The translations under genes were made by a program, and so were the position numbers. Shown one piece after another: positions 4,594 through 19,196 of a stretch of DNA of 64,000 nucleotides; the first letter of the stretch is position 1, and each line of letters starts with the position of its first letter. Source of the stretch: Candidatus Omnitrophota bacterium. Its GTDB lineage: Bacteria; Omnitrophota; Gorgyraeia; Zapsychrales; Zapsychraceae. The notes below the pieces were generated by a model. The model made no database searches, was not told the origin of the DNA, and was given only the letters and a program-made list of their open reading frames with translations. The stretch lies in the NCBI GenBank assembly GCA_029261065.1, contig JAJDCB010000030.1, forward strand, positions 48,196 through 112,195, given 5' to 3'.

Positions 4594-4671
4594 GGTGGGT
4601 GTAGCTCAGTCCGGTAGAGCTCCTGGTTGTGGTCCAGGCGGTCGCGGGTTCAAGTCCCGTCACTCACCCCA
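4594..4671 (+). tRNA. tRNA-His (anticodon GTG) with extra 5' G(-1) and encoded CCA
   Basis: Cloverleaf is readable. Acceptor gGTGGGTG pairs with CACTCACC. D-arm is GCTC...GAGC. Anticodon stem CCTGG/CCAGG with loop TTGTGGT gives U33 and anticodon GTG. T-arm is GCGGG-TTCAAGT-CCCGT. The G-1:C73 eighth acceptor pair is the hallmark of tRNA-His. It resembles E. coli tRNA-His. Confidence 0.85.
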
Positions 4672-6231
4672 TTTTTCATTTTTTGCGTAGGATTTTTCGT
4701 AAACCTCAGTGTTTTCAACAGGATGATGAGGTTCTAACCGTTTATGAAGGGCCTGAACTCCTGGGGCTACTTCTCCAACTAGTTCAAGTGGTTTGTCGAG
4801 GGGAATAGATAGCTTTCTATCTAAAAGAAAGAGGTTCGAACCTAAAGCAGCTAGAATATCTCGTTTGTCATCTATCGTACCGAGTTCAAACCTATCTTTA
4901 GCGGTCTCAGCAAAATTCAGCATTGTTTCAGCGCGATCCAGCCACGTTTCTGCACGATTATTGGAATCATTTATTAATTCTTCGTATTTGTGCTTTTCTT
5001 GAATTAGCTTTTCTTTATGTTTTGAGAATTCTTCCGAACTGACCTCCCCGCTTAATCGGAGATCGAGTAATGCATCTAGTTTTCGTTTGCAAGTATCCCA
5101 CGCTTTACGGTGTGCGGTGACAATTTCCTTTTGATCTTCGGTTTCGTTAGCCTGTTCGGCTTTGAGTTGTTTGATTGCCCATTGATGAAATGAGGGAGGG
5201 ATGTTAATCTTGATTAAGGTATCTGTGATCTGTGTTTCAAGATCTTCCATTCGAACAGGTTTTTGAGAACATTTTTTAATTCGTTTAGTACAACGATAGT
5301 AAGTATAGTGATGAGTATTTCCATTTTTTTGATGTTTGGTTTTTTCTTCGGCTGTAATAGCCGCGCCACATTCACCGCAACGGATTAATCCTGTATAAGC
5401 GAAGCTGTGTGTTTTAGAGCAGGTAAAGGATCGTCTATCTAGAATTGTCTGAATCTCATTAAATTGGGATTTACTGATCATGGGTTTATGGTTACCAGGA
5501 TAAAGATTACTTTTCCATTTAAAATGACCATAATAAAATGGGTTACGAAACAACTCATGCATCTTACTTAGACTAAGAGGTTTATTGTTTGACGATGTTA
5601 ACCCAATTTTCTTAGAAAAAGTGTGGATAGATTTAATCGAACATTTTTTCTGGATTAATGTATCCCACAATTTTCTAACGAGTGCAAATTTGTCAGGATC
5701 TTTGTGTATAGGGGGAAGGTCGGGAAGTTTGTGTTTGTTATTCAAATATCCAATAGGTGGTTTATGTGGATACCAGCCATCTTCAACTTTTTTCCGCATA
5801 CCTCGTTTTGTATTTACGCTTAAATCAATTACAAATTGATTCGCCATACCAAATTCCAAGTTCATCATTAAAACGTTGTCAGAGGGCAAATAACCACGTT
5901 GGAAGGTCTGTATGTGTTGGATGATGCCTTGTTGGAGCATCCAGTTAATTTTGCCTCCGTCAATGGGATTTCGAGCTAGGCGGTCAAGTTTCCAGCAAAT
6001 AATACCATTCGCCTGTCCGTTTTGAATAGCATCAAGCATTTCATTGATTATTGGACGACCAGGTGCTTTAGCTGATTTTTCTTCGGTATAAATATCAGTA
6101 ATTTTCAGATTTTTATCTTTAGCAAGGTTTTTAAGTTCACTAATTTGGGAGGGAATGGAGGCTACTTGTTTGTCTTCACTCTCAGAAGATTTTCGTGCAT
6201 AAAGAAAATATTTAATTGGTGTCGAAATCAT
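4660..6231 (-). CDS. large serine recombinase (integrase) of an integrated element
   Basis: N-terminal resolvase catalytic domain YARKSSESEDKQ with the serine nucleophile and LDRLARN, then a recombinase domain. Zinc-ribbon CGECG...CTKRIKKC and a C-terminal coiled-coil are present. The stop overlaps the tRNA-His 3' end by about 12 bp. Confidence 0.85.
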   Translation of the reverse strand: MISTPIKYFLYARKSSESEDKQVASIPSQISELKNLAKDKNLKITDIYTEEKSAKAPGRPIINEMLDAIQNGQANGIICWKLDRLARNPIDGGKINWMLQQGIIQHIQTFQRGYLPSDNVLMMNLEFGMANQFVIDLSVNTKRGMRKKVEDGWYPHKPPIGYLNNKHKLPDLPPIHKDPDKFALVRKLWDTLIQKKCSIKSIHTFSKKIGLTSSNNKPLSLSKMHELFRNPFYYGHFKWKSNLYPGNHKPMISKSQFNEIQTILDRRSFTCSKTHSFAYTGLIRCGECGAAITAEEKTKHQKNGNTHHYTYYRCTKRIKKCSQKPVRMEDLETQITDTLIKINIPPSFHQWAIKQLKAEQANETEDQKEIVTAHRKAWDTCKRKLDALLDLRLSGEVSSEEFSKHKEKLIQEKHKYEELINDSNNRAETWLDRAETMLNFAETAKDRFELGTIDDKRDILAALGSNLFLLDRKLSIPLDKPLELVGEVAPGVQALHKRLEPHHPVENTEVYEKSYAKNEKWGE

Positions 6232-6431
6232 TGCTCAATTTTTTGTAACAGCTTTTTTAAGTCGGATTCTTTATAAAGACGATAGTTATTTATTGGATGT
6301 CTGTGTGGTTTTAGCTTGTCCGCTTTATCCCAATTTCGTAAAGTCTGTCCGGTTACTTTTAAAAGTTTTGCGGCTTCTTTAATTGTTATGTAATTGCTCA
6401 TAATGCCCCTCTCCTTAACCTTATAAAACAT
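6228..6431 (-). CDS. AlpA/excisionase-type helix-turn-helix DNA-binding protein
   Basis: ITIKEAAKLLKVTGQTLRNW is an HTH_17/MerR-like excisionase motif. It overlaps the integrase start by 4 bp. An internal Met at MSNYITIKEAA may be the real start, near 6401. Confidence 0.5.
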   Translation of the reverse strand: MFYKVKERGIMSNYITIKEAAKLLKVTGQTLRNWDKADKLKPHRHPINNYRLYKESDLKKLLQKIEQ

Positions 6432-6631
6432 TATAAATTAGTAAGATAGTAAATCAAAGCATATTCTTTTCTTTTAAAATTTGGTAAATATGATTTAAAA
6501 TTTGTGTTTTATTTAGTCGAACAATTATTTTTTTCATTGTTTATAATTTGAATGACAAGAATGACAAGTTTTTCTTATTTAAACCATTAATCGTGAATAA
6601 TAATTAAAGTATAGTGTTATTGTCATTCTTG

Positions 6632-8833
6632 TCATTGATTTTTTTTGAAAAAGTAAGAGCTTTTAATTCCTACCCAATAATGTGACTGCGCGTCTTTGTC
6701 TTCGCCAATAGAAAAATGTTTTATGAGCTGTTTGCCAAATTTAATCTTAGACAGTGGTCTGAAACAATTATCTTTGCACCAATTTTGATAGGTTTGGTGG
6801 AGATCACCTTTTTTGCTTGTTAATCCCTTCCCCAATCTACACGCCTCATCGACAAAAAGAAGAACATTGTTATTTTCTTTTTGATAATCAATCAGTTCTT
6901 CGCGGATAGATTTGTCTACTTCAAAATAATTTCGTTTTCGAAGTCGATTGAGTCCTAGTAAACACCAATTAAAAATTCCATTTAATTCGGTTTCCAGCTC
7001 ATATTTTAGGTTTTTGTTTTGTTCGCATTCGGGAAATTCCCGATTAAACCTTAATATAAGTAGTCTTCGAAAAAATGCGGGAGTCTTATCATCAACACGA
7101 GGCATATTGTTTAACGAAAAAACTAATTTGGAAAATGGGTTAAATTTAAAGGGTTGTTTAAATTTGTGGTCTGCCTGTATTTCATCGCCACTTATTACAG
7201 CTTTAAACATACTGTCGTATACTTCTGATTTGACGTTTGTTTCGGTACTGATATTAGCTAATTTTCCAAAAAGATTGGCTAAATAATGCGAATCATTAAA
7301 TTTTTCTAAAGAAATAGCTGAATAATTATCTTTACCTAGAATTAAGCCAAGGATGTAAAGAATAACACTTTTGCCATTAGCGCCATCACCAATAAGAAAA
7401 AGGGCTTTTTCATATTTTGTTTCTTTTGTAAGACACAATCCCATAAATTCTTGAAGTGCCTGAATTTTCTCAATGTTCTGCTCAAATATTTCGTTAATAG
7501 TCTGTTCCCATAAGGGGCAATGGGTATGTTTATTGAACTCAATATTTAGTTGAATCGTTGAGTAATTGTCTTGGTTGTGTTCTGTTAAAGCAAAGTTATC
7601 AAGATTAAATAGTCCATTCTTTAAATTGAGATATGGAGAACAATTAAGAATATTAGGGACAATAAAAGATTTTATTTTTAAAAAATGTATTATTTCATGG
7701 CTTTTGCGTTGGCTCGTTTTTGTTTTAAGGATTTCTAAGGTTAATTGATGTATTTGTTCTTCATGTGTTTTTGTGTAAACTCCCTCTGAATATTGATAAA
7801 AATTTTCTGCAGAGAATATGATTTTATTTTGCCCGAGTATTAAGTCAGCAATTTTTACGGAATTTATGCTTCCTCCGTCAATAAACTCTATGTTAGATGC
7901 GCTTTCTTTAGATTTGATAAAATCTTTAAGAAGGGAATCTTTTGCTTTTTGGAGTGAGTGCTTAAGATATGGATTTCCTTGTAACCTATATTTTTCTCCA
8001 ATAGGGTAATGTGTAAAAATTTTATATATTTCGTTATCAGTTGCTCCTGATTTGAGTAGGTTGATGATAACTTTAAAGTCAGCTTCGCTTCTCGACTCAA
8101 AACTATCTTGTGGTTTTTTGCCTTTTTCAATAAGTTGTCTGGTTTCATTAGAGAGATTAAGGGTATTTAGATTAATATTGTCTTGGATTGAGAGTTCTTT
8201 ATTAATTTTTAGGTTTTTTTGAAAGTCGCTAATTTTATAACGTAATGAATCGTCAAAATAGATGATTTTTACTTCTTTATGGTCATGTAGTACTTTACAG
8301 TTAGTTGTTGATGGTATTCGTAGTATTCGGTCAATATTATGAGTTCCATTATCTCCATGAAGGTCGGTGACTAATAGTTTCAGTATGTTTTCTATATTTT
8401 CAAAATTGTCTACAGGGAATAAGCCCGTTAATAACCAATAACAATGCAAACCATACCCGGAATCAACGATAATGGAAGGGGGTAGTTTGTAGCTTTTGAT
8501 AAATGTTATAGCCTCGCTTTGGGTTTTAAAGAAACAGTATTTTTTGTGTCCAATTTTTCCATAGTCAACATCTGTCCAGAGGCTTGTAATAAATTCTATT
8601 GATTCTTTTTTTCCTGATTGTTTTGATCGTGGAGCTACACCAAAATAGATGTCACCTGTTAATGTTGGCGTTAATTCAATAGCTTCAGTAATAGACTTTG
8701 CGAAATGTTGTTCTGCCTTACTATTTTTGATTGTTCGAATTTCTAAATAGCCTGACTGGTAGTCGAAAAAAGGAAGGAATAATGCATTAAAGAATTTTTG
8801 AGTTTCAAGTATTTTCATGAGTTGGGTGGTCAC
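6632..8833 (-). CDS. bifunctional primase-polymerase (PrimPol) fused to D5_N/P4-family SF3 helicase, replication protein of the mobile element
   Basis: N-terminal motifs WTDVDYGK, SGYGLHCYW (sGxGxH) and HNIDRILRIPST. C-terminal Walker A FLIGDGANGKSV with P4/D5-type helicase architecture. Confidence 0.75.
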   Translation of the reverse strand: MTTQLMKILETQKFFNALFLPFFDYQSGYLEIRTIKNSKAEQHFAKSITEAIELTPTLTGDIYFGVAPRSKQSGKKESIEFITSLWTDVDYGKIGHKKYCFFKTQSEAITFIKSYKLPPSIIVDSGYGLHCYWLLTGLFPVDNFENIENILKLLVTDLHGDNGTHNIDRILRIPSTTNCKVLHDHKEVKIIYFDDSLRYKISDFQKNLKINKELSIQDNINLNTLNLSNETRQLIEKGKKPQDSFESRSEADFKVIINLLKSGATDNEIYKIFTHYPIGEKYRLQGNPYLKHSLQKAKDSLLKDFIKSKESASNIEFIDGGSINSVKIADLILGQNKIIFSAENFYQYSEGVYTKTHEEQIHQLTLEILKTKTSQRKSHEIIHFLKIKSFIVPNILNCSPYLNLKNGLFNLDNFALTEHNQDNYSTIQLNIEFNKHTHCPLWEQTINEIFEQNIEKIQALQEFMGLCLTKETKYEKALFLIGDGANGKSVILYILGLILGKDNYSAISLEKFNDSHYLANLFGKLANISTETNVKSEVYDSMFKAVISGDEIQADHKFKQPFKFNPFSKLVFSLNNMPRVDDKTPAFFRRLLILRFNREFPECEQNKNLKYELETELNGIFNWCLLGLNRLRKRNYFEVDKSIREELIDYQKENNNVLLFVDEACRLGKGLTSKKGDLHQTYQNWCKDNCFRPLSKIKFGKQLIKHFSIGEDKDAQSHYWVGIKSSYFFKKNQ

Positions 8834-9101: not shown

Positions 9102-10001
9102 TTATTTCATAGATTTAGGAATTGCAAAAGCTCTTAAAAAATCACTATCATCGATAAGTTCTTTAAAGATTGTAGAATGATTTTTTATTTTGAGAAATTT
9201 AAGAATAGCATGCAATTCATTAAAATATAAGCCGTCAGAAAATTTTTCATTTTGTTGAATTGATTTTTTTATAAGCCCTGAAAGATATAGGTTACGAATG
9301 TGTCTTTTTAATCCTGATTTTGTTTTAAAGAGAGATTTTGTTTTTGACCCAATCTTTAGATTGTTTTTTAATGAACTTTTATAAGATATAATGCGATTTC
9401 TTTCATATCGTTTAAATTTTTTGCTTTGAAGTTCTGATTTAAAATAATATGGTAACCTTTGTAATCTTTTTTTTATATTATCAACAGTTTTTAGATAGTA
9501 GTTTGGATGTCGTTTTTTCCAATCTTTCATACATGTTTTATCTGGAGTATTTTTGATAAGCAGGAAGAGGTCCGCCATAATTTCGCAGCGTTTTTTATCC
9601 CCTAATCTCATTAATAGGGTTTTCATGCTCATTAAGAATAAGGCTATATTAAATTCTTTTTTTTCTTTAGACCGGAAACGCTTGCGATACTCTTTGCCAA
9701 CTTTTAACTCAATTCTGAGAAATCTGTGCATAGGTTCAAATATATTCTTGTGAGTTTTAATTTTGGCTAACAGGTTACAATCTTGCTCAAGCTTTGATAG
9801 ATAAGCACGTGCTGGATCGGGCAATTCATTCTTCTTGTTAATATAATTCATGCTTTCAGCTATCCTTTTGGAATAGTCATTTCTCAAGAAAATCCAATTT
9901 TCTCTCTTTGAATTTTTTTTAATATCCTGAAAAAATTCATCTAAAACCCCAGTGGAGATTAATTGTTTTCCTGTGATTTTATTATAATTATTATCTTTCA
10001 T
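9102..10001 (-). CDS. hypothetical basic (Lys/Arg-rich) protein, co-oriented upstream of the replication gene
   Basis: 299-aa ORF with no recognisable motif and very high K/R content. It is the first gene of the leftward int/rep module. Confidence 0.3.
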   Translation of the reverse strand: MKDNNYNKITGKQLISTGVLDEFFQDIKKNSKRENWIFLRNDYSKRIAESMNYINKKNELPDPARAYLSKLEQDCNLLAKIKTHKNIFEPMHRFLRIELKVGKEYRKRFRSKEKKEFNIALFLMSMKTLLMRLGDKKRCEIMADLFLLIKNTPDKTCMKDWKKRHPNYYLKTVDNIKKRLQRLPYYFKSELQSKKFKRYERNRIISYKSSLKNNLKIGSKTKSLFKTKSGLKRHIRNLYLSGLIKKSIQQNEKFSDGLYFNELHAILKFLKIKNHSTIFKELIDDSDFLRAFAIPKSMK

Positions 10002-10162
10002 GATTATTTTTGTAAGTTCTTATAATTTTATATTTGGAAAATGCTCTTCATTCGATTATAATGTTTTATAAGGTTTTTGTAAAATTAAATTACAAAGTAA
10101 GAAAATATTATTAAAATGATGTAGAGTATTGTGTTAGTGAAACTGGAGATTAAATTTCTAAA

Positions 10163-10381
10163 ATGAAAATAGGTTTTGATAAATTTAACTTGAACCAGAA
10201 ATTATATTCAGTAATTGGTGCTGTTATAGCTATTTTGACTTATATGGTCGACGCTGATAATTTAAATGTTGCGATAGGAATAGCTTTGCTAACTATTATT
10301 TTAGTGTTGATGCTGAAAAATCAATATATTTCTTATTGTCCTAGACACCCCTACCCTTACCTACCCAGATCCATTGACTAA
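10163..10381 (+). CDS. small hypothetical membrane protein
   Basis: 72 aa with two hydrophobic helices. First gene of the rightward cargo cluster. Confidence 0.25.
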   Translation: MKIGFDKFNLNQKLYSVIGAVIAILTYMVDADNLNVAIGIALLTIILVLMLKNQYISYCPRHPYPYLPRSID

Positions 10382-10429
10382 TTATTAATCATAGAGCATA
10401 CTTGTACTTTAATATTAAAGGGGAGAAGT

Positions 10430-11128
10430 ATGAAGAAAATAGGATTAATGGTCATAGGAATGTTGCTTTTTATAGTTAGCAATGCATGTGCTGTAATATT
10501 TGTGCATACAAGCGATTTTATTGTAAATTCTGATAGAACTAATTTTAATGGTTTTGAAGGCTTATCAACCCCGGGAACTGGTCAAATTTTAGCAAATGGT
10601 GTGTTTATATTAAATGATCCTTCTGAAGCAACTTACGAAGAAGATGGAATTGTAGTGACCCAGATTTTTGATCAATTTGTAGCGGGAAATGAAAGTTTTG
10701 GAATCTGGACTACACATTTTCCATCAGAAGGAACAAGAGATTGGTATCCTAATGGAGGAGATGATGGATATACGCGAATTACTAGATTGGGAGATTTAGA
10801 TTTTTTCAATGTTGGTTTTGATGTATCAAGTGGGACTGGAGGAAATAAATATCTTTTCATCCTATTGAATGATGGATCTATTGTTAGTCAAGGAAATGTC
10901 AATCGTCCAAATGGTCATAGTTATCTGGGCTTTTCTCATGGAGGTTTTGATGAAATATTGGTTAGATCAATAGATTCACCTTTAAGTAATCCAGAATTCT
11001 ATGATATGAGTTTGAACGGATTAAGCATTGATGAAATTGAACTTTCAGGTGTAATACCAGAGCCTACATCAATTATACTATTGGGAATTGGTTTAAGTGG
11101 AGCAGGTTTCTTTAGAAGAAAAAGATGA
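10430..11128 (+). CDS. PEP-CTERM sorting-domain protein (exosortase substrate)
   Basis: N-terminal signal peptide. C-terminal IPEPTSIILLGIGLSGAGFFRRKR is a canonical PEP motif + TM helix + Arg-rich tail. Confidence 0.7.
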   Translation: MKKIGLMVIGMLLFIVSNACAVIFVHTSDFIVNSDRTNFNGFEGLSTPGTGQILANGVFILNDPSEATYEEDGIVVTQIFDQFVAGNESFGIWTTHFPSEGTRDWYPNGGDDGYTRITRLGDLDFFNVGFDVSSGTGGNKYLFILLNDGSIVSQGNVNRPNGHSYLGFSHGGFDEILVRSIDSPLSNPEFYDMSLNGLSIDEIELSGVIPEPTSIILLGIGLSGAGFFRRKR

Positions 11129-11240
11129 AGAGATTGTTACTAATATGTATAACAGAAAAAAGCAGTATCAGAAATCTCTAATTATCGCTATCTTTACTTT
11201 GAAAACGGCATCCTAACCTCTTGGCAAGACTAGGTTAATC

Positions 11241-11429
11241 ATGGACACTATTATTTCTATAATCTGCTTAGTAGCAATTATCACTCTCTTTGTGCTATTG
11301 TTTTCAATCAACGCAACATTGAAAAACATCCTTGAAGAAATGTACAAGCAAAACGGAACAACCCCCCCATCAAATTTTGACTCTCAAGGGTTCTCTTCCC
11401 AACCCCCTGCCAATAAAGATGATTATTAA
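11241..11429 (+). CDS. small hypothetical membrane protein
   Basis: 62 aa. N-terminal TM helix and a Ser/Pro-rich tail. Confidence 0.25.
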   Translation: MDTIISIICLVAIITLFVLLFSINATLKNILEEMYKQNGTTPPSNFDSQGFSSQPPANKDDY

Positions 11430-11624
11430 ATCAACTGTTATCGCTATCTAACCTATTTTGTATTTAGGGCTTACTTGATGTAGGGAATCATCCTAAAGGT
11501 GCCAAAACTAATTATTAAGAGCCCCGGAGGAAAAAATATTTAAATTCATTAGATGAGTTGTTATAATAACTTCGTAAAGAGGTTGGTATTGTTTTTTATT
11601 GTTATTTACAGTGAGGGGGTTATT

Positions 11625-11933
11625 ATGCCGTTTAAAAGTGGTGTTAGTGGGAATCCTAATGGTCGTCCCAAGGGTAGCAGTTATTTTTCCAAGAAAGAGT
11701 TAGAAGAAGCTATAAGAAAGGTTGAGGGTGAGAATAAGGAAAATCTTTATGAGCATTTTGTAAGGCGTGCCTTTTTGAATGACAGGGTGCTGACAGTGTT
11801 AATGAATAAATTAGTGTCTGATGTTAGAAATGTTGAAATTGATAGTGATATCGATTTGATAAATGAAGAGTTAGAGTTTTTTCATGGAGAAAAAAAAGGA
11901 GATATGAAACGATTCGAGAAGTTTTATCAGTGA
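11625..11933 (+). CDS. hypothetical protein with N-terminal GNPNGRPKG motif
   Basis: Strong RBS gaggggg lies 5 nt before the ATG at 11625. The track ORF starts at 11553 but that stretch is hydrophobic and lacks an RBS. The motif SGNPNGRPKGS recurs in small phage/plasmid-associated proteins. Confidence 0.4.
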   Translation: MPFKSGVSGNPNGRPKGSSYFSKKELEEAIRKVEGENKENLYEHFVRRAFLNDRVLTVLMNKLVSDVRNVEIDSDIDLINEELEFFHGEKKGDMKRFEKFYQ

Positions 11934-12080
11934 TTTATTTTTTTAATTATTATACACTCTCTAATGCTAAAATTGTTTTTGACGGGATGAAGGGATCTGG
12001 CACTTTGTTTTCAAGCAAAGTCTTCGCCAAGATATATAAAGTTTCATTTCGTTTAGAGGAATACAAATAAGGAGATAAGT

Positions 12081-12509
12081 ATGAAAAACCTAATACTCGT
12101 ATTCACGTGCCTATTAATCATCGGATGCGCGACAACTAGCATTGGGAAAAAGTCTGCAATGCTTAGGATTGGAATGACAAAAGATGAAGTAATTGAGATT
12201 TTAGGAACTCCAAAGACAACTTCAGTTAAGGAAAAAAGCGATGGTGTTGTTGAAAAATGGTCATATTGGTCAAAAATGTTTTACGGCACTATTATTCTTG
12301 ATGATCCTAACATGGCAGGAGCAGGAAACCGCATAACTGTAACTTTCAAAAACGAACTTGTTTCATCTTGGGGGGATCAGCTAGATTATTCAGACATCAT
12401 GGAAAATTCTACTCAATTAATGGGTGAATATATGAAAAATATGCCTACTATTCAGGTTGAGCAAAAAGTTTATGACGGCGATAGGCAAGATGCTAAAGAG
12501 CAAGAATGA
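12081..12509 (+). CDS. hypothetical lipoprotein
   Basis: Signal peptide with lipobox LIIGC-ATT. 142 aa. Confidence 0.4.
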   Translation: MKNLILVFTCLLIIGCATTSIGKKSAMLRIGMTKDEVIEILGTPKTTSVKEKSDGVVEKWSYWSKMFYGTIILDDPNMAGAGNRITVTFKNELVSSWGDQLDYSDIMENSTQLMGEYMKNMPTIQVEQKVYDGDRQDAKEQE

Positions 12510-12575
12510 ACGTAAAAGGGAGTAAGAGTAAGGGTGGAGTTCCCCCGATAAAATGGACACAAACATGGGTGAATA

Positions 12576-13253
12576 ATGGATGAAAAAACTCCTTGGGGAA
12601 AATTACATGAGGAATGCATAATCCACGATTTTGATAATTTTGTAAAATATTTTGATGATGAGTTAGCTTCAGTTGTATTGTCGTTGGTTATTTGTGCTAA
12701 TGATTTAAAAATTTGTTTAGATTTGATTTTTACTGAAAAAAATGAATTCCCACATAAGGCGAACTATTTTTTTAAATTAGCAATATCACATCTTAGAGAG
12801 CTGGCTACAGTAGTTGGGAAAAAAGGAGAATTGGTTCAAAATTTTCTTCAAAGACATAATGATAAAACACTTTTAGAAAGTTGGAAAATTCTAGAAGATA
12901 ATTTGGCTAATTATGAAGGGCTTGTCAAAGATGTGTTAAAGGAAGTTAGAGATGATGCTTTTCATTATGAGTATTCGAAGGAAACTGTGAGTGCTTTAAA
13001 AAATTTTGATAAATTACAGGTTGCCTATCAAAAAAAGGGGGTTTTCAAAGAAAATCCAATAGGTCAGGTTTATTTGTTTGGGCATAAGGTGTCAGGGACG
13101 ATAATGAATGTTCATTTAGATAAAAAAAGTGTCCAGAAAATGAGTGAGGCTTCAAGTAATCTTTTTACATTTGTGGATAGTCTATTACATATTGCACAAC
13201 AAGAAGATGTATATTTGAGGAGTCTTGTAAAGAAACTAACAAAGAATAATTAA
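12576..13253 (+). CDS. hypothetical cytoplasmic protein
   Basis: 225 aa with no signal peptide and no recognisable domain. Confidence 0.3.
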   Translation: MDEKTPWGKLHEECIIHDFDNFVKYFDDELASVVLSLVICANDLKICLDLIFTEKNEFPHKANYFFKLAISHLRELATVVGKKGELVQNFLQRHNDKTLLESWKILEDNLANYEGLVKDVLKEVRDDAFHYEYSKETVSALKNFDKLQVAYQKKGVFKENPIGQVYLFGHKVSGTIMNVHLDKKSVQKMSEASSNLFTFVDSLLHIAQQEDVYLRSLVKKLTKNN

Positions 13254-13324
13254 TTTATTTGGAAAAGCCTATTTTCAACTATTTAACAAAATCATAACAC
13301 AACTATTTATTAAGAGGGGTATTT

Positions 13325-13834
13325 ATGAGAATAAAGGAAATACACAAGATTGTTTATTTGTTAATTACGGTTGTGATAGTAAGTGGTTGTTCTGCTATTA
13401 GAAATCATAGGAATTTTCAGCAACCATTAGAACAAAGCCTTACAGCATCTGTAGGTTCTGCTCTTGTGAGAATGAATCGGATTGGAGATTTACCAAACGC
13501 CTATGGTGGTAGAGATATTTATGGTGGAAAGGTTGATAAAGGTTATGTAGAGGTGAAATTAGTAGAAATCACCGATACTAAGGGATTAACCTTAAGTGTT
13601 AGTGATGTTGCTGTCCAATCGACTGAATCAACAATGACTAGATATGTAAATCCGAAATTAGTTGATGTAACTCAAAATGTTAACATTAGTTCTTCTGATA
13701 ATAGTAGTACAATTGTTGAAATTGATGGGAATGCTGAAAACGAATATGTTATTGGTGGTGTAAAAATAACATTTTTAGAAATAAGGAAATCATCAATAGT
13801 TTATACCATTGAAGATCTAATGGCGGTTAAATAA
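13325..13834 (+). CDS. hypothetical lipoprotein
   Basis: Signal peptide + lipobox IVSGC-SA. 169 aa. Confidence 0.4.
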   Translation: MRIKEIHKIVYLLITVVIVSGCSAIRNHRNFQQPLEQSLTASVGSALVRMNRIGDLPNAYGGRDIYGGKVDKGYVEVKLVEITDTKGLTLSVSDVAVQSTESTMTRYVNPKLVDVTQNVNISSSDNSSTIVEIDGNAENEYVIGGVKITFLEIRKSSIVYTIEDLMAVK

Positions 13835-14122
13835 AAATATGTTAATATTAACCTATGCAATGGGCGAGGGAAGAAGTTCTAACTTGGCTTAACCACCGAC
13901 CACATTTGTTATAACCCGTTGCAGTGTAATAAATTGCAGCGTGTTATTTTTATAATATAAATCCGACCAAACTAAGATGTCATGTAAGTTTGGTCTTGAC
14001 AAGGTGATTTCTTTAAAATAAACAGTGACAGGCACGGATTAAGGCAAGGCTGCGAGGCGGATCGGAAAAGAATGCCTGGCACTCATTATTTTTAAACGAA
14101 ATTATCTTCTATTTCTGATTTC

Positions 14123-14485
14123 ATGAAATTTAAAAATATTATTACATCTTTCCTTCAATATGGACTTGCTATATATGTTTTTATTATTATGGCATTTATA
14201 ATTTCCTTTAAATTAACAGAAGCGGTTTTGGAACCTTTTTATTGTCAACGATTGTTAGTATATGTTACAGGTATATGGATTGTAATGATGTTTCTTTTGA
14301 TAATCATTCATTATAAAATTATTTACCCTTATTCTCGTAGTAGTCCTATTAAAGGTCTTGTAATCCTTGCTTTGATTTTAAATTTTGTCACTTATATAAT
14401 TTCTTCAGGAGACTTTGGGAGTGAGTGTGGGAAGGCTTGGCTTGAATGCAACCAGGGAAATTGCAAAAAATCGAGTGAATTTTAA
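14123..14485 (+). CDS. hypothetical integral membrane protein
   Basis: 120 aa with 3 predicted TM helices and a Cys-rich C-terminus (CGKAWLECNQGNCKK). Confidence 0.3.
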   Translation: MKFKNIITSFLQYGLAIYVFIIMAFIISFKLTEAVLEPFYCQRLLVYVTGIWIVMMFLLIIIHYKIIYPYSRSSPIKGLVILALILNFVTYIISSGDFGSECGKAWLECNQGNCKKSSEF

Positions 14486-14510
14486 TAAGTTTGTTTAGTG
14501 TTCATTAATG

Positions 14511-14547
14511 AAGCAAACAGGTTCTAACCTGTTTCAGCCAGCCACCC
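14511..14547. repeat. 36-bp direct repeat copy 1 (aagcaaacaggttctaacctgtttcagccagccaccc) containing a 7-bp-stem hairpin
   Basis: Identical except for 1 nt to the copy at 16823-16860. Both lie about 25 bp after a + strand stop codon. Hairpin is aaacagg-ttctaa-cctgttt. Confidence 0.6.
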
Positions 14548-14634
14548 TTATTTTGTCTAACATGTTGGTATGCATGAGGTTAACTATATGCTCCTGACGA
14601 GATAGGTGGAAAGATTTTAAGAAGGAATGCCGAG

Positions 14635-15000
14635 ATGAAAAAGCCTCTAGTATGGATTGTTCTTATTGTTGTGATTGGTGTTTGTGTTTACAAAGCAAAT
14701 GAATTCAATGAAAATTATAAGAAGGGAATGAGTCGAGTAAAGTATGTCCCTCCTCATGAAAATGCGACGATTGATGAAGTGGAAAAGAAAATTGGAGACA
14801 AATTAACTATTACTAAGAAAGAGAATATCATTTTTGGAGTTGCTGAAGAACCAATGGGAATTTATATGGGTTCAGGTCCTCCTGTGTATATATTTGATGA
14901 GAACAATACACTAATTGATTACACATTAGATAGAGGGGATGATTTAAAATTTAGAAGAAGATGGTACATAGATAAAAAAGGTAATTCAACTGAAAATTAA
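14635..15000 (+). CDS. hypothetical secreted protein
   Basis: 121 aa with an N-terminal signal/anchor helix. Confidence 0.35.
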   Translation: MKKPLVWIVLIVVIGVCVYKANEFNENYKKGMSRVKYVPPHENATIDEVEKKIGDKLTITKKENIIFGVAEEPMGIYMGSGPPVYIFDENNTLIDYTLDRGDDLKFRRRWYIDKKGNSTEN

Positions 15001-15082
15001 TTTTGGATTAAAGTATTCAACAAGTTTTCTGACATTAAGCTCGTCAACGAAGCGACCTTTATTCCTAACTAAAGGAAATACA

Positions 15083-15769
15083 ATGAATAAATTATTATTC
15101 CTCTTTGTGTTATTATCCCTTTCTTCAAATGTTTTTGCAGAATCAATAAATTCTTCACCTAAAGAAGTTTCCAGATCTGAAATAATTGAAAAACTATCAG
15201 CAATTAACTCTTTATATTACGAGATGACATCAAGAACTTCATCGGACACGCCGTTACCGGGTGGCGATGCAATTTCTGATGAAAAAGTGTGGTTTAAGGA
15301 AGGCTACTGGCGTACAGATATTCATTCAGAATCCGCTAATGCAAAGAAAAGAATAAATATTTCAACACCGGAAGCAAGTTATTTCTATAATTCATTTTCA
15401 GATGAAACAAAAAAAAGAGACGGGGGAGCAGGACAGGATTTAAAGAATTTCTTATTTCGATTCTTCTTTGCAACGCTAAAAAGAGAGGAGTCTTTTAAAA
15501 TATTAGGAACAGAGGAGATAGATGGTAAGATTACTACGATACTAGAAATTATTCAAAGTCCTAAGAAGATGAATGTGGAAGGTCAAGATATCAGTATAAA
15601 GGAGAAAAGAATTAAAGTTTGGATTTGGAATGAGAAAGGTGTACCACTCAAACAAGAAGAAAAGTGGCAGGATAATGATTTTCCAATAGAGTATACAACA
15701 ATGATTACATATAAAAATTATAGTTTTGATGAAATACCAAGTGAAATATTTGATATATTAAAAGAATAA
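15083..15769 (+). CDS. hypothetical secreted protein (possibly LolA-like fold)
   Basis: 228 aa. Signal peptide MNKLLFLFVLLSLSSNVFA. The domain assignment is speculative. Confidence 0.35.
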   Translation: MNKLLFLFVLLSLSSNVFAESINSSPKEVSRSEIIEKLSAINSLYYEMTSRTSSDTPLPGGDAISDEKVWFKEGYWRTDIHSESANAKKRINISTPEASYFYNSFSDETKKRDGGAGQDLKNFLFRFFFATLKREESFKILGTEEIDGKITTILEIIQSPKKMNVEGQDISIKEKRIKVWIWNEKGVPLKQEEKWQDNDFPIEYTTMITYKNYSFDEIPSEIFDILKE

Positions 15770-15850
15770 TTTAGCGTTCAAATTAATTTTTTATTGCGTC
15801 AATTTCGTGTATTATTTGGATGTTATGAAACTTTTTTGTTTGGAGGCCAG

Positions 15851-16798
15851 ATGACGAATAAATCTAATAATCTAAAAAGCATTCAGACAGTTTTTATTCC
15901 CCTAACTACAAAAATTATTTTAATTTTAATTTTAATTTTTTGTTTTTACTCTTCTTCATTTGGGCAGGATATTTCAAATATGGAGGAGCGAATAAAGAAT
16001 GCTCAGATATTTTATGTTAATGAGCAAGTCAATAAGAAGCCTGAAATATATGAAGGGGATAGGTTGGTTTGTAAACTAAAATCGGCAGAAATATATTACG
16101 CTGGTCAAAAAAGCATTAATTATTTGAGCAATGAGACCAGTCAAAAATCTACTGAAGAGTTGCGCTTTAAGTTAGAAATTTTTGGTCCAGAAAAATATAA
16201 TCTTATCCCCAGAGAACGATTATCAAGCAGTGTTATAAAAGGTGGGAAAATAACAATCGCAGAAGATGAAATAGGTAAGAATCTTGTGAGCAATAAATCT
16301 TCAATATCACATGATTCAAATTATTATACTTTTACTCAACATCCTATAACAATGCATGGAGAAGCAACCATTACTGGGCTTCAATTGCCTTCTAAGGATG
16401 CGAAAATATTAAAATTGTTAGAAGGTTATTTAACTGTCCACAATGCAGAACAGACAAGTGAGAAAGAATTGAATCCTTTAATAGGTAATGTAGGAAAAGG
16501 CATTGCGATTAATGAAGAAGCAGAAATTACATTTAAAGTTTATGATGATAATGTTGAATACATTTTAGAGTGGGAGGAGGGTCAAGATAAGCCGTATCTT
16601 GATATAGAGTATTATTCGAAAGACGGCACAAAATTAAAGCGTAAAGGTGGGGGGAGTTCAGGAGTTAATAGGAAAATTGAATATCAGCAGAAGTTTGTTG
16701 AGGCATTTCCTCCTGATGCTTACGTTATAATAAAATATCCAAAAAAAGTAAATGAAATTCAAATTTCTTTTTCTTTTAAGGATATTCCTTTACCATAG
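15851..16798 (+). CDS. hypothetical secreted/membrane-anchored protein
   Basis: A ggagg RBS precedes the ATG at 15851. Long hydrophobic signal-anchor. Track ORF begins at 15794. Confidence 0.4.
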   Translation: MTNKSNNLKSIQTVFIPLTTKIILILILIFCFYSSSFGQDISNMEERIKNAQIFYVNEQVNKKPEIYEGDRLVCKLKSAEIYYAGQKSINYLSNETSQKSTEELRFKLEIFGPEKYNLIPRERLSSSVIKGGKITIAEDEIGKNLVSNKSSISHDSNYYTFTQHPITMHGEATITGLQLPSKDAKILKLLEGYLTVHNAEQTSEKELNPLIGNVGKGIAINEEAEITFKVYDDNVEYILEWEEGQDKPYLDIEYYSKDGTKLKRKGGGSSGVNRKIEYQQKFVEAFPPDAYVIIKYPKKVNEIQISFSFKDIPLP

Positions 16799-16822: not shown

Positions 16823-16860
16823 CAAGCAAACAGGTTCTAACCTGCTTCAGCCAGCCACCC
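16823..16860. repeat. 36-bp direct repeat copy 2 (caagcaaacaggttctaacctgcttcagccagccaccc)
   Basis: Matches 14511-14547. Lies about 30 bp outside the left IR of the IS481 element. Confidence 0.6.
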
Positions 16861-16891
16861 CATTCTGTTTCAGGTCCATACCGGACACATG

Positions 16892-18159
16892 GGTAACAGT
16901 TTGTACCGGAGACATAGGTTACACTATCTCCGGTGCAAACGGGTACTCTAACGGTTCGACTTTTTTGGTTTCTAAATCAAAAAATCCTAAGTCATAATTC
17001 ATAAAAGTAACAAGCCACACATCATCGTTGATTTCTTTAACACCAACGACCTGTCCAGCAAGAGCACGGCTTAAATTAATTTTGTTTCTTCTAATACAAA
17101 TTCTACCGCAATTTGTTACCGTAACAGTTCTATCATGAAAAGGGTAGTTAAGTTCTTCAATTCCTTTGTAAATGCGAGTTGAAGTCTTATATAATTCGCT
17201 AGGGTATTTCATATCAATGGCTTGATGAGGTCTATCTGTATTAAACTCTTGAATAAAGTTATCGAATTTTTCTTGTTGTTGCAATAAGTTTATTCCTGGA
17301 GGTTTTGTTGCCTCTTGTTTGAGTGTTAAATGCATACGTTCATGTCTTCCATTTTGCTGCGGATTACCTGGCTTAATTCTTTCAATAGCAATACCAAGAC
17401 GTAGCCACCAAACAGAAAGTTTGCTTAATCCAAACAGTGCATTGGCAGAAGAGAATGGGAGGCCATTATCTGTACGAATAGTTTTTGGTAAGCCATATTT
17501 CTGAAAAGTTTGTTTTAAGGTGCTGAAGGCATGGATTTCTTTGGTGCTTTCCTGTCCTTCACAAGCGAGTAAATAGCGACTACAGAAGTCTGTAATCGTT
17601 AAGGGATAACAATAAGTTTTATTGCCAAGCATAAATTCACCTTTGTAATCAGCGCACCATAAGTCATTAGGATTTTGATGTTTTGAAAAAGGAGTCCCCT
17701 GAGGTTTAAATCGTCTTCTTTTTCTTCGTTTGACTAAACCATTTCGATCAAGAACACAATGAATAGTGTTTTTAGCAGGAGTCTTTACTTCTGGATACTT
17801 TCGTTTTAATTGTTCTTGTATTTTAGGAGCACCCCAGGAAGGTTTGTCTTGTTTTATTCTTAAGATTTCATTTTCGATTTGAATTGGTAATTTATTTGCG
17901 TAACGATGCGGCTTCCTGGCTCGATTTGTAAGGCCGTGAAGACCGATATCCTTGTAGCGATTCCAAAATTTATAACCTGTCTTTCGTGAGATATCAAATT
18001 CACGGCAAAGTTCAGACATTTTGTCACCTTGTATTAATCTTCCTATAAATTTCATTTTTTCATCCATAATAACACTCTCTTTCCATGGCATATGTAGTAC
18101 CTCCTTATATGCCATTATTGTATAAAGTGTTACCTATGTCTCCGGTATATTGTGTTACC
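16892..18159 (-). mobile_element. IS481-family insertion sequence (about 1.27 kb) with imperfect terminal inverted repeats
   Basis: Left end ggtaacagtttgtaccggagacataggttacact matches the reverse complement of the right end aagtgttacctatgtctccggtatattgtgttacc, about 28/34 identical. It encloses a single DDE transposase gene. No clear target-site duplication was identified. Confidence 0.7.
16919..18115 (-). CDS. IS481-family DDE transposase (integrase core, rve)
   Basis: N-terminal HTH then a DDE/rve core (...TDNGLPF...). The transposase sits within the IRs. The likely true start is MDEKMKFIGRL, near 18067. Confidence 0.8.
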   Translation of the reverse strand: MAYKEVLHMPWKESVIMDEKMKFIGRLIQGDKMSELCREFDISRKTGYKFWNRYKDIGLHGLTNRARKPHRYANKLPIQIENEILRIKQDKPSWGAPKIQEQLKRKYPEVKTPAKNTIHCVLDRNGLVKRRKRRRFKPQGTPFSKHQNPNDLWCADYKGEFMLGNKTYCYPLTITDFCSRYLLACEGQESTKEIHAFSTLKQTFQKYGLPKTIRTDNGLPFSSANALFGLSKLSVWWLRLGIAIERIKPGNPQQNGRHERMHLTLKQEATKPPGINLLQQQEKFDNFIQEFNTDRPHQAIDMKYPSELYKTSTRIYKGIEELNYPFHDRTVTVTNCGRICIRRNKINLSRALAGQVVGVKEINDDVWLVTFMNYDLGFFDLETKKVEPLEYPFAPEIV

Positions 18160-18193
18160 TATCTCTCAGGAAGCACACCGAAGGAAAAAACAA

Positions 18194-18272
18194 GGAATTG
18201 TCTCGATGTTTTTGCGAGACAATTCCCAATCTGTTTTAAAGACAGAACTTCTCTTGTTGAGGTTCTGTCTTT
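18194..18272. repeat. two adjacent perfect hairpins outside the right IS481 IR (ggaattgtctcg-N8-cgagacaattcc, then aaagacagaac-N13-gttctgtcttt)
   Basis: A 12-bp and an 11-bp perfect inverted repeat read directly. The second is followed by a T-rich run. They may be terminator or att remnants. Confidence 0.5.
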
Positions 18273-18380: not shown

Positions 18381-18938
18381 ATGAATCTTAAAAGACTTTT
18401 AAATGATGCTCTAATAGATGCGGTAATTCAAACGTTTCAGAGTATGACTAATTACATTCCTTTGCCCACCGAAGGTAATATCGAAATCACGAGCGAAGAT
18501 AGTATTATGACCTCGATTAGCCTAGTTGGCATAATCAAAGGTGATCTGGAGCTATATATATCCTTAGCCGAGGCTAAAAAGATTGTTTCGATCATGCTAG
18601 ATAAAGATGTGGATGAAGCTTCCGCATCTGTAACGGATGGAATGTGTGAGGTTGTTAATATCATGGCCGGACTGTTCAAGAAAAATCTTAGCAAGAATAA
18701 GTTTAGTTTTGAAGTCAGTATTCCAAAAGCCATAAAAGGGACAAGGATTAGCAGATGTATTCCTTCTCAAATAACGGTTATTAACCAAAGTTTTATTTAC
18801 GAAGCTATTTCTTTTAGTGCTATGCTCGTCTATTCGATCAATAAAAGTCACATCCAGGAGATGGGGTTTGATGATATCGAAGAAGAAAAGGCCTTTACAG
18901 AATCCTTGAGGATGTTAAAAGATACATTAGAACCTTAG
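18381..18938 (+). CDS. CheX/CheC-like chemotaxis phosphatase-fold protein
   Basis: Collinear similarity to CheX: N-terminal ALIDAVIQTF, central SLVGIIKGDLELYISLAEAKKIVSIM, and the E..N motif VTDGMCEVVNIMAGLF. Confidence 0.55.
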   Translation: MNLKRLLNDALIDAVIQTFQSMTNYIPLPTEGNIEITSEDSIMTSISLVGIIKGDLELYISLAEAKKIVSIMLDKDVDEASASVTDGMCEVVNIMAGLFKKNLSKNKFSFEVSIPKAIKGTRISRCIPSQITVINQSFIYEAISFSAMLVYSINKSHIQEMGFDDIEEEKAFTESLRMLKDTLEP

Positions 18939-18956
18939 TCACCAAGTGTATTTTTT

Positions 18957-18993
18957 TTAAAAACCTTTGTTAATACAACAAAGGTTTTTTTTA
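18957..18993 (+). terminator. rho-independent terminator (aaaaacctttgtt-aataca-acaaaggttttttttt)
   Basis: 11-bp stem followed by a U-tract 20 bp after the stop of the CheX-like gene. Confidence 0.7.
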
Positions 18994-19196
18994 TTTAGGA
19001 ATTTCGGGGCTTAAACGAAATTCCATATTTGTGTAATACTCGGTAGTTTATTCTGGGGTTTATACCGTTGAGTTGGATTGGGATTAAGATGAGTCAAAAT
19101 AAGAGGTTTTCTTCTTTGTTATTTATTGACATATTGTAATATAAAAAGTAATCATGATCTTAAGGGTTATTCTAGGAAGGTAGGAGGAGTTTAGGA

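Follow-up and report, generated by a model that had tools for sequence, protein, structure and literature searches.

Phage lipoproteins such as Llp (phage T5) and Cor (phage phi80) exclude superinfecting phage. Superinfection exclusion is also conferred by phage lipoproteins of the Ltp type (PMC3952083). More generally, phages carry morons, which are independent transcription units that have spread among phages and are often beneficial to the host (PMC3594210). Tycheposons, by their side, target transfer RNA (tRNA) genes and combine integration functions and a small replication module with up to 10 kb of cargo (bioRxiv 10.1101/2020.12.28.424599). Here, we describe a locus that shares features with both kinds. 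It lies in a 64,000-nt stretch of contig JAJDCB010000030.1 from a Candidatus Omnitrophota bacterium (hereafter the window), where a candidate element of ~12.1 kb, delimited at ~4.7-16.85 kb by putative attachment (att) sites, is found directly downstream of tRNA-His. Its cargo is a block of eleven open reading frames (ORFs), named ORF1 to ORF11, at 10163-16798. This cargo is probably a patchwork of accessory genes that act gene by gene.

Layout of the cargo and linkage of its families

The cargo is read as a patchwork of separately gained genes because its families do not co-occur elsewhere, wide gaps and internal repeats divide the block, and the family distributions differ. Co-occurrence was followed at 38 loci (344 kb), which are the contexts of homologues of ORF2, ORF5, ORF6, ORF7, ORF10, ORF11 and the primase of the element. 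Each of these loci has one homologue of an island gene, and a second island family is present in none of them (0/38). The preliminary description of this DNA had regarded the block as a plausible site for one undescribed system and had proposed a search for its genes together in other genomes; that search returns no co-occurrence, which speaks against a single system. It had also named synteny conserved in genomes without the integrase as the sign of native envelope genes, and no synteny was seen anywhere. In addition, the distributions of the families are separate, to judge from where their homologues lie: on a chromosome for the single context looked at, in prophages, or in defence-island-like surroundings.

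The eleven ORFs are co-directional on the + strand and occupy 81% of 10163-16798, with the coordinates and layout first reported for them, and ten of the eleven are credible genes, ORF3 being the doubtful one. They had also been called an operon. Their common direction stands, but the intergenic gaps measure 48-288 nt, no start codon overlaps a stop codon, and both a terminator-like hairpin and 37-nt repeats lie within the block. The block therefore falls short of a tight operon. Promoter-like sites are more frequent than in shuffled sequences (60 vs 42 ± 5.5), and terminator-like sites overall do not exceed the shuffles. Good ribosome-binding sites are found for seven ORFs. When nine clusters at 90% identity were looked up, they held solely sequences of the genome itself.

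A hydrophobic N-terminal or transmembrane (TM) segment is found in nine of the eleven ORFs, or in eight of the ten credible genes, which are thus classed as exported or membrane proteins by a crude hydropathy test. Against a generic background of 30%, this is an enrichment (p = 6e-4). The earlier statement that nearly all products are exported therefore holds for these nine ORFs, but ORF4 and ORF6 are predicted to stay in the cytoplasm. Its list of a PEP-CTERM protein (ORF2), two lipoproteins (ORF5 and ORF7) and three small membrane proteins (ORF1, the doubtful ORF3 and ORF8) was recovered in full. The signal-peptide proteins were recovered in part: ORF10 and ORF11 have a signal or anchor, but the signal peptide ascribed to ORF4 came from an over-long ORF. 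Similarly, the statement that no product has a catalytic motif is valid elsewhere in the block but not for ORF6, which has an invariant R-x4-H-Y.

The base composition of the block sets it apart from the host genes. The G+C content is 0.323 and that of third codon positions (GC3) 0.247 in ten cargo genes, vs 0.372 and 0.325 in 40 host genes of the window (Mann-Whitney, p = 4e-5 for G+C and p = 2e-4 for GC3), and the primase and 299-aa genes of the element are as AT-rich as the cargo. The 10-mer GGTTCTAACC occurs three times in 64 kb (4730, 14520 and 16833), where 0.08 copies would be expected, and all three are in the island. Furthermore, the best candidate for a cargo promoter has its -10 box in a 20-nt element of which an identical copy is found at 6417-6436 (- strand), directly ahead of the xis-like and recombinase genes and their ribosome-binding site. 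The cargo is therefore tied to the control regions of the element. That these genes are cargo of a mobile element, and not native envelope genes, is supported by their position between the backbone and an insertion sequence (IS), their low G+C and GC3, the GGTTCTAACC copies and the common 20-nt -10 region. The first report had reached the same view, with which the recombinase/primase backbone, the tRNA-His and the adjoining IS also agree.

Table 1. Position, strand and basis of the features of the element and its cargo, numbered from the first letter of the window.
Feature	Positions	Strand	Basis or remark
tRNA-His (GTG)	4595..4671	+	ARAGORN; Rfam tRNA 62.2 bits; left border of the island
Large serine recombinase	4660..6231	-	Pfam Resolvase 1.7e-18, Recombinase 2.8e-11, Zn_ribbon_recom 1.7e-11
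Left copy of the core GGTTCTAACC	4730..4739	+	Candidate crossover region of the left att site (attL), putative att role; 59 nt past the tRNA
Small ORF of 67 aa with the look of a helix-turn-helix (MSNYITIKEAAKLLKVTGQTLRNW..)	6228..6431	-	ORF list and alignment; helix-turn-helix by eye alone
Primase-helicase, replication module	6632..8833	-	Pfam DUF5906 3.7e-19, Pox_D5 9.6e-9, D5_N 4.4e-8
Lys-rich protein of 299 aa, divergent from the cargo	9102..10001	-	Pfam and PADLOC: no match
20-nt element TTATAATGTTTTATAAGGTT	10056..10075	+	-10 box of the best cargo promoter candidate (TTGGAA-17-TATAAT), 88 nt before ORF1
ORF1, small membrane protein of 72 aa	10163..10381	+	Hydrophobic segment; singleton 90% cluster (NCBI and Logan)
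ORF2, secreted PEP-CTERM protein of 232 aa	10430..11128	+	PF07589, TIGR02595
ORF3, 62 aa, one TM segment, doubtful gene	11241..11429	+	No ribosome-binding site
ORF4, DUF5681 protein of 102 aa, cytoplasmic	11625..11933	+	PF18932 4e-8, 34.2 bits vs 27.5
ORF5, BamE/SmpA-OmlA lipoprotein of 142 aa	12081..12509	+	PF04355 26.5 bits vs 23.2
ORF6, cytoplasmic helical-bundle protein of 225 aa	12576..13253	+	
ORF7, lipoprotein of 169 aa	13325..13834	+	Lipobox VSGC
Terminator-like hairpin with T-run, 3' of ORF7	13917..13941	+	Consensus scan
ORF8, 120 aa, three TM segments, Cys-rich tail	14123..14485	+	Singleton cluster; no ribosome-binding site
37-nt repeat, palindrome AAACAGGTT-CT-AACCTGTTT	14511..14547	+	Internal att-like copy
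ORF9, 121 aa, N-terminal TM anchor	14635..15000	+	
ORF10, secreted LolA-like protein of 228 aa	15083..15769	+	Signal peptide
ORF11, exported protein of 315 aa	15851..16798	+	N-terminal signal or anchor
37-nt repeat, 97% identical to 14511-14547	16824..16860	+	Candidate right att site (attR), right border of the island; putative att role
IS481-family IS	16881..18170	-	Pfam rve, rve_3, HTH_32, LZ_Tnp_IS481

Protein families of the cargo

The families of the ORF7 lipoprotein and of the R-x4-H (Rx4H) protein ORF6 are the parts of the island most worth following. ORF7 belongs to a large, uncharacterised family of lipoproteins of ~150-210 aa for which there is no Pfam model. Among 26 homologues, the lipobox Cys is near-invariant, and two motifs, DLPNAFG.ADIYGGK and S.ETT..RY, do not vary at all. 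The AlphaFold2 (AF2) model is confident, all-beta and globular, with no close match in the PDB. Homologues were found on six viral contigs, and in four of them (L033-L036) the gene sits in the head module of a Mu-like prophage, with portal, Mu-F-like and Neck1 genes on one side and the head protease and major-head genes on the other. Another homologue lies ~2 kb from a tyrosine integrase. In L033-L036 (IMG/VR, 55% G+C, locus position ~8001-8564), the genes beside the ORF7 relative vary, their products measuring 163/604, 148/517, 148/271 and 148/433 aa. From this gene order, the slot between Neck1/Mu-G-like genes and the protease is a putative variable moron hotspot of Mu-like prophages.

ORF5 is the second lipoprotein (lipobox LIIGC, Cys16). 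It matches the phage families phrog_18614 (8e-18) and phrog_3135 (7e-8), and the 'SmpA/OmlA family protein' of Flyfo siphovirus Tbat2_3 is 30% identical to it. In that phage, the gene is flanked by tape-measure and tail genes, and a gene for a YafO toxin lies two genes upstream of it. These phage matches point to ORF5 as a phage-borne paralogue, probably distinct from the BamE of the host BAM complex. The best PDB sequence matches of ORF5 are to BamE and are weak (E = 0.3-0.4). Insertion between conserved phage genes, by which morons are recognized, was thus seen for the families of ORF7 and ORF5; it was not seen for those of ORF2, ORF6 and ORF10. A tblastn search of phages and plasmids with ORF4, ORF6 and ORF7 gave nothing save one weak match to a Pantoea plasmid.

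The ORF6 family has ~45 homologues of ~205 aa, none with a Pfam domain. In 36 aligned members, R125-x4-H130-Y131 is invariant and D126 nearly so. HEPN domains, which have a four-helix fold, carry a motif of this kind (Rx4-6H) at the start of the last core helix. The AF2 model of ORF6 is a helical bundle (mean predicted local distance difference test, pLDDT, 88) whose third long helix ends with the motif, and the position of the motif is therefore off from the canonical HEPN helix. Profile searches of Pfam and the PDB did not match ORF6 to HEPN, Foldseek gave nothing at E <= 0.001, and the structural scores of ORF6 were no better than those to generic bundles. Two members of the family show a weak match to Ribonuc_2-5A (E = 0.02). 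The genes beside the homologues include GmrSD_N with DUF4062, PIN_12 with DUF2513, and RelA_SpoT; no partner gene, antitoxin-like or other, is conserved beside them. The family is absent from the viral contigs. The assignment of ORF6 to HEPN is a lead, not a finding.

ORF2 ends in a PEP-CTERM sorting signal that scores above the cut-offs of both PF07589 (24.0 bits vs 20.7) and TIGR02595 (27.2 vs 16). Its tail, ..VIPEPTSIILLGIGLSGAGFFRRKR, has the VPEP motif, a TM helix and an Arg/Lys cluster, and the N-terminal signal comprises hydrophobic residues 7-25 followed by ..SNACA/VIF (by crude hydropathy, not by a trained predictor). The protein belongs to a large family of PEP-CTERM proteins of ~220 aa, of which over 100 cluster representatives match it with 40-50% identity; the family shares the motifs VHTTDFI.D..RTNFNGFE, WYPNGGD.GYT, YLGFSGGGFDEI and NALAIDSIEL. 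In GCA_029975915.1, the sole context examined, the homologue is a lone gene amid genes for sulfatases and TonB receptors and is not mobile. No relative was found among 2.9 million viral contigs. By this evidence, ORF2 is a gene of host type that the island has captured. No exosortase was seen among the host ORFs scanned within the 64-kb window, which also has no second PEP-CTERM protein, and there are no extracellular polysaccharide (EPS) genes near ORF2. That processing of ORF2 would need an exosortase of the host, as first proposed, is sound in principle. Residues 167-213 show weak similarity to the malectin-like domains of plant ANXUR receptor kinases (E = 0.03-0.1), which hints that the domain of this family may be a carbohydrate-binding beta-sandwich.

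Only eight homologues of ORF10 were found in 5.8 billion proteins. Two of the eight match LolA_like (PF17131; best 1.1e-5), ORF10 itself having no Pfam match, and for one the Joint Genome Institute (JGI) gives the name 'outer membrane lipoprotein-sorting protein'. Their neighbours are unrelated to the island, including those of the closest homologue, which is 54% identical. For ORF11, the ATG at 15851, with ggagg upstream, is a likelier start than the TTG at 15794. A word-index search found no relative of this protein. By exhaustive HMMER search, made with a single query that concatenated ORF6, ORF7, ORF9, ORF11 and the N-domain of ORF2, a C-terminal module of ~240 aa was found once in a lipoprotein of 533 aa and as four tandem copies, followed by ankyrin repeats, in a protein of Planctomycetota (P0028 / MHC4885250.1; 1143-1155 aa). 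The module ends in ..I.IPFSFKD.PLP; as a repeat domain it is unnamed, and its match to DUF5643 stays below the threshold. Sequence and profile searches of the PDB with ORF2, ORF5, ORF6, ORF7, ORF10 and ORF11 gave nothing significant.

Among the remaining ORFs, ORF4 has the motif GNPNGRPKG and no hydrophobic segment. Its start with a good ribosome-binding site is at 11625 (gagggggttatt-ATG), and the longest ORF opens at 11553, 24 codons further upstream; the gene call in Logan is also of 102 aa. ORF4 matches phrog_26239 and phrog_4114, and the DUF5681 family is phage-associated; for instance, a DUF5681 protein has been recovered from a phage structural proteome (PMC8954984). ORF9 has one homologue, on a contig of 589 bp (P0023, 60% identity), found in the same HMMER search. 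ORF1 has no family match in profile searches. The exact sequence of ORF3 is absent from the protein collection, in which the other ten ORFs are present (NCBI and/or Logan).

The carrying element and its integration site

The ORF of the serine recombinase overlaps the 3' end of tRNA-His by its terminal 12 nt (4660-4671). If the crossover takes place near 4735, the ~25 final codons of the recombinase would be host DNA and would be altered upon excision. The recombinase has no relative in IMG/VR. Its start overlaps by 4 nt the 67-aa ORF with the look of a helix-turn-helix, which is, from its sequence and place, a possible Xis/AlpA-type regulator. Among GTDB species genomes and IMG/VR, the relatives of the primase-helicase reach 21-31% identity at most. 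Directly 3' of its stop codon there is a perfect 17-nt inverted repeat (AATGACAAGAATGACAA; 6551-6567 and 6620-6636), itself a tandem of GAATGACAA-like units, and this repeat could be an origin or an operator.

Sites of serine recombinases are laid out as 9-bp inverted arms around a central dinucleotide. Because of this layout, the copies of the core at 4730 and 16833 are candidates for attL and attR. The copies at 14520 and 16833 sit inside the 37-nt repeats, the latter directly after ORF11, and a weaker copy of the repeat with a shorter palindrome (AAGTT-CT-AACTT) is found at 13866-13902. Thus, 37-nt repeats flank ORF9-11, and the weak copy at 13866 together with the copy at 14511 flanks ORF8. 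ORF9-11 may therefore be a separate module bracketed by serine-recombinase att sites. The tRNA-His 3' end is not duplicated at the far border, and the 37-nt repeat was not found in viral contigs. The repeat at 14511-14547 folds into a modest RNA hairpin (z = -2.0); an attC-like or terminator role was considered for it and is unsupported, as the folding is only modest. A search of Rfam over 4-19 kb matched the tRNA alone.

The IS481 element is inserted on the right of the 37-nt repeat at 16824-16860, at a distance of 21 nt and just beyond the candidate attR. It is intact, with a transposase of 398 aa and 45-nt terminal inverted repeats that are 80% complementary. In the Logan assembly of SRR15505515, the contig ends within this element. 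A strong terminator-like hairpin on the + strand (14 pairs, then a T-run; 18238-18272) lies 67 nt past the IS, and would be ~170 nt downstream of tRNA-His once the island and the IS are removed; it may be the original terminator of tRNA-His. The genes past the IS are of host type; among their products are CheX, MlaE, MscS, histidine kinases and a radical-SAM protein that resembles lipoyl synthase. A sub-threshold match to the PyrR binding site of Rfam, located 3' of the CheX-like gene (18900-18994; 33.6 bits vs a gathering threshold of 54, E = 0.2), is probably due to chance.

Interpretation and comparison with known elements

A patchwork of this kind would work as follows. The element would insert beside tRNA-His by means of its serine recombinase and would be able to replicate through its primase-helicase, two steps that are proposed because of the known roles of these protein families. 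Once the element is resident, the accessory genes would be expressed as independent, moron-like units. The host is taken to have an outer membrane, and most cargo products would be destined for the cell envelope. The two phage-type lipoproteins, and perhaps other envelope proteins, might each act singly on the outer membrane or the periplasm. By analogy with prophage lipoproteins that block superinfection or aid the host, such cargo might alter the cell surface or the periplasm. The surface protein ORF2 would be processed only where the host owns an exosortase. Further envelope products would be the LolA-like periplasmic protein, an exported beta-rich protein and a few small membrane proteins. 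By contrast with these, ORF6 would be a possible cytoplasmic effector, and ORF4 would likewise stay in the cytoplasm. Any specific phenotype is held with much less confidence than the patchwork itself.

Several observations weigh against this reading. Most of the related contigs measure 1-8 kb, so that distant linkage would escape, although immediate neighbours are covered; the envelope share of the cargo could then reflect a common purpose that is invisible to few and short contigs. The enrichment in envelope products is itself weak over the background of the window (20/42 host ORFs; p = 0.03). The ribosome-binding sites of ORF1, ORF3 and ORF8 are weak or absent, so that these three may go unexpressed. 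The att assignment is made from short repeats only, and no empty site turned up. Nine cargo ORFs (all but ORF3 and ORF10) and the 299-aa protein gave no match to known defence systems in PADLOC-DB 2.0 at E <= 0.01, and both AF2 models are without an informative structural match. Finally, any function of the products, and any effect on phage or host, is inferred.

Other explanations have to be set beside the patchwork. The block may be imagined as one coherent and undescribed envelope system, in which a LolA-like carrier brings the island lipoproteins to the outer membrane, where they would form, with the PEP-CTERM protein and ORF11, a surface layer for receptor masking or adhesion. Eight or nine of the 11 products are indeed envelope-bound, the LolA-like protein and two lipoproteins are encoded within one block, and the co-directional genes follow a promoter candidate with the -10 region of the recombinase operon. 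Nevertheless, such a system is very unlikely, as no pair of families is found together in 38 loci, other neighbours accompany the closest LolA-like homologue, the families are distributed differently (one chromosomal context, prophage, defence-island-like), and the block is divided by wide gaps, internal repeats and a terminator-like site. It is somewhat easier, if still rather unlikely, to see here the anti-phage defence cargo of a satellite resembling P4 or the phage-inducible chromosomal islands (PICI), with ORF6, possibly HEPN-like, as an abortive-infection RNase and the membrane proteins as its partners or as exclusion factors. PADLOC (ten proteins scanned), the HEPN profiles of Pfam and the PDB, and Foldseek (E <= 0.001) were all without a match, the motif of ORF6 closes the third long helix of the model instead of opening the last, neither capsid nor terminase nor hijacking genes were found on the element, and the ORF6 family is not in viral contigs. 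These points are set against a backbone like those of satellites and tycheposon-type elements, the invariance of R-x4-H-Y in 36 homologues, the weak Ribonuc_2-5A match (E = 0.02) of two family members, and the presence of GmrSD_N, DUF4062, PIN_12, DUF2513 and RelA_SpoT beside homologues.

The block might also be largely decaying DNA, that is, a remnant element with unexpressed ORFs whose hydrophobic N-termini come from AT-rich codons. Good ribosome-binding sites are missing from ORF1, ORF3 and ORF8, all nine clusters looked up at 90% identity are confined to the genome itself, ORF11 has no word-index relative, an IS adjoins the block, and the internal att-like copy suggests rearrangement. Decay is nonetheless highly doubtful given that seven ORFs have good ribosome-binding sites, that ORF2, ORF5, ORF6, ORF7 and ORF10 belong to conserved families at full length and retain their invariant residues and export signals, and that the recombinase and the primase-helicase are intact. 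Barely credible is a phage-type lysis cassette, in which the TM proteins would be holin-like and the lipoprotein and anchored proteins spanin-like. One block does combine small TM proteins with two lipoproteins and a protein anchored at its N-terminus, but an endolysin, muramidase/amidase or other lytic domain was found in no island ORF, and the genes are out of the holin-endolysin-spanin order of adjacency. Outer-membrane spanins (o-spanins) are small and Pro-rich, unlike ORF7, a globular beta protein of 169 aa. The patchwork thus remains the reading preferred here. A bolder version of the lipoprotein story is unlikely: the ORF7 family would be a new, broadly distributed class of outer-membrane lipoproteins of mobile elements that protect the carrier cell, perhaps by a block to the adsorption of phage or the entry of its DNA, and the island, with its PEP-CTERM protein, LolA-like carrier and second lipoprotein of phage type, would be a surface-remodelling kit that a serine-recombinase element moves from cell to cell.

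If the patchwork reading is right, the locus is ordinary accessory cargo on a small integrative element of a known kind. Three leads come out of it: the ORF7 family, which is large and uncharacterised, occupies moron slots of prophages and has a confident fold without a close solved relative; the ORF6 family, with its invariant Rx4H and defence-island-like neighbourhoods; and a PEP-CTERM protein on a mobile element, a trait that would be transferable only to exosortase-owning hosts and would thus impose a built-in host-range filter on the cargo. None of the three alone opens a long-standing question.

As compared with the PEP-CTERM/exosortase system, ORF2 has the expected signal peptide, VPEP motif, TM helix and Arg/Lys tail. 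Its gene, however, is carried by a mobile island and has neither an exosortase gene nor EPS genes near it, and such a mobile copy seems unusual because the family was not found in the 2.9 million viral contigs. ORF6 resembles HEPN toxins and abortive-infection RNases in its invariant R-x4-H, its helical-bundle model and the defence- or toxin-type neighbours of its homologues, but it gives no profile match, its motif is placed differently in the model, and no conserved partner of antitoxin type accompanies it.

With regard to the element as a whole, the integrase, a putative regulator and the primase of phage satellites (PICI/P4-like) are present here, while no homologue of terS, capsid genes, sid/psu or ppi was found with Pfam and PHROGs. 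Tycheposons and PICI-like elements are also similar in the tRNA site, the recombinase, the primase-helicase and several kb of mostly unannotatable cargo, and the extra att-like repeats inside the island recall tycheposons with serial integrations. Nevertheless, tycheposons have a tyrosine recombinase of their own lineage that faces inward, whereas the large serine recombinase of this element is transcribed outward, toward the tRNA. The cargo differs as well, nutrient-uptake operons in tycheposons being replaced here by envelope proteins in a low-G+C host with outer-membrane genes. Finally, the island is similar to prophage morons in its small accessory genes, which are spaced individually, have promoter-like sites and in many cases encode envelope products, and the ORF7 and ORF5 families do occur as insertions among the conserved structural genes of prophages and phages. 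No similarity in sequence or structure links the island to Ltp (Streptococcus thermophilus phage TP-J34), Llp or Cor, although no search aimed at it was made, and the families of the island are not known to exclude phage. In contrast to the morons of prophages, the carrier here is not a prophage, capsid, tail and terminase genes all being absent from it; it is a small integrative element that may bear moron-like genes of its own.

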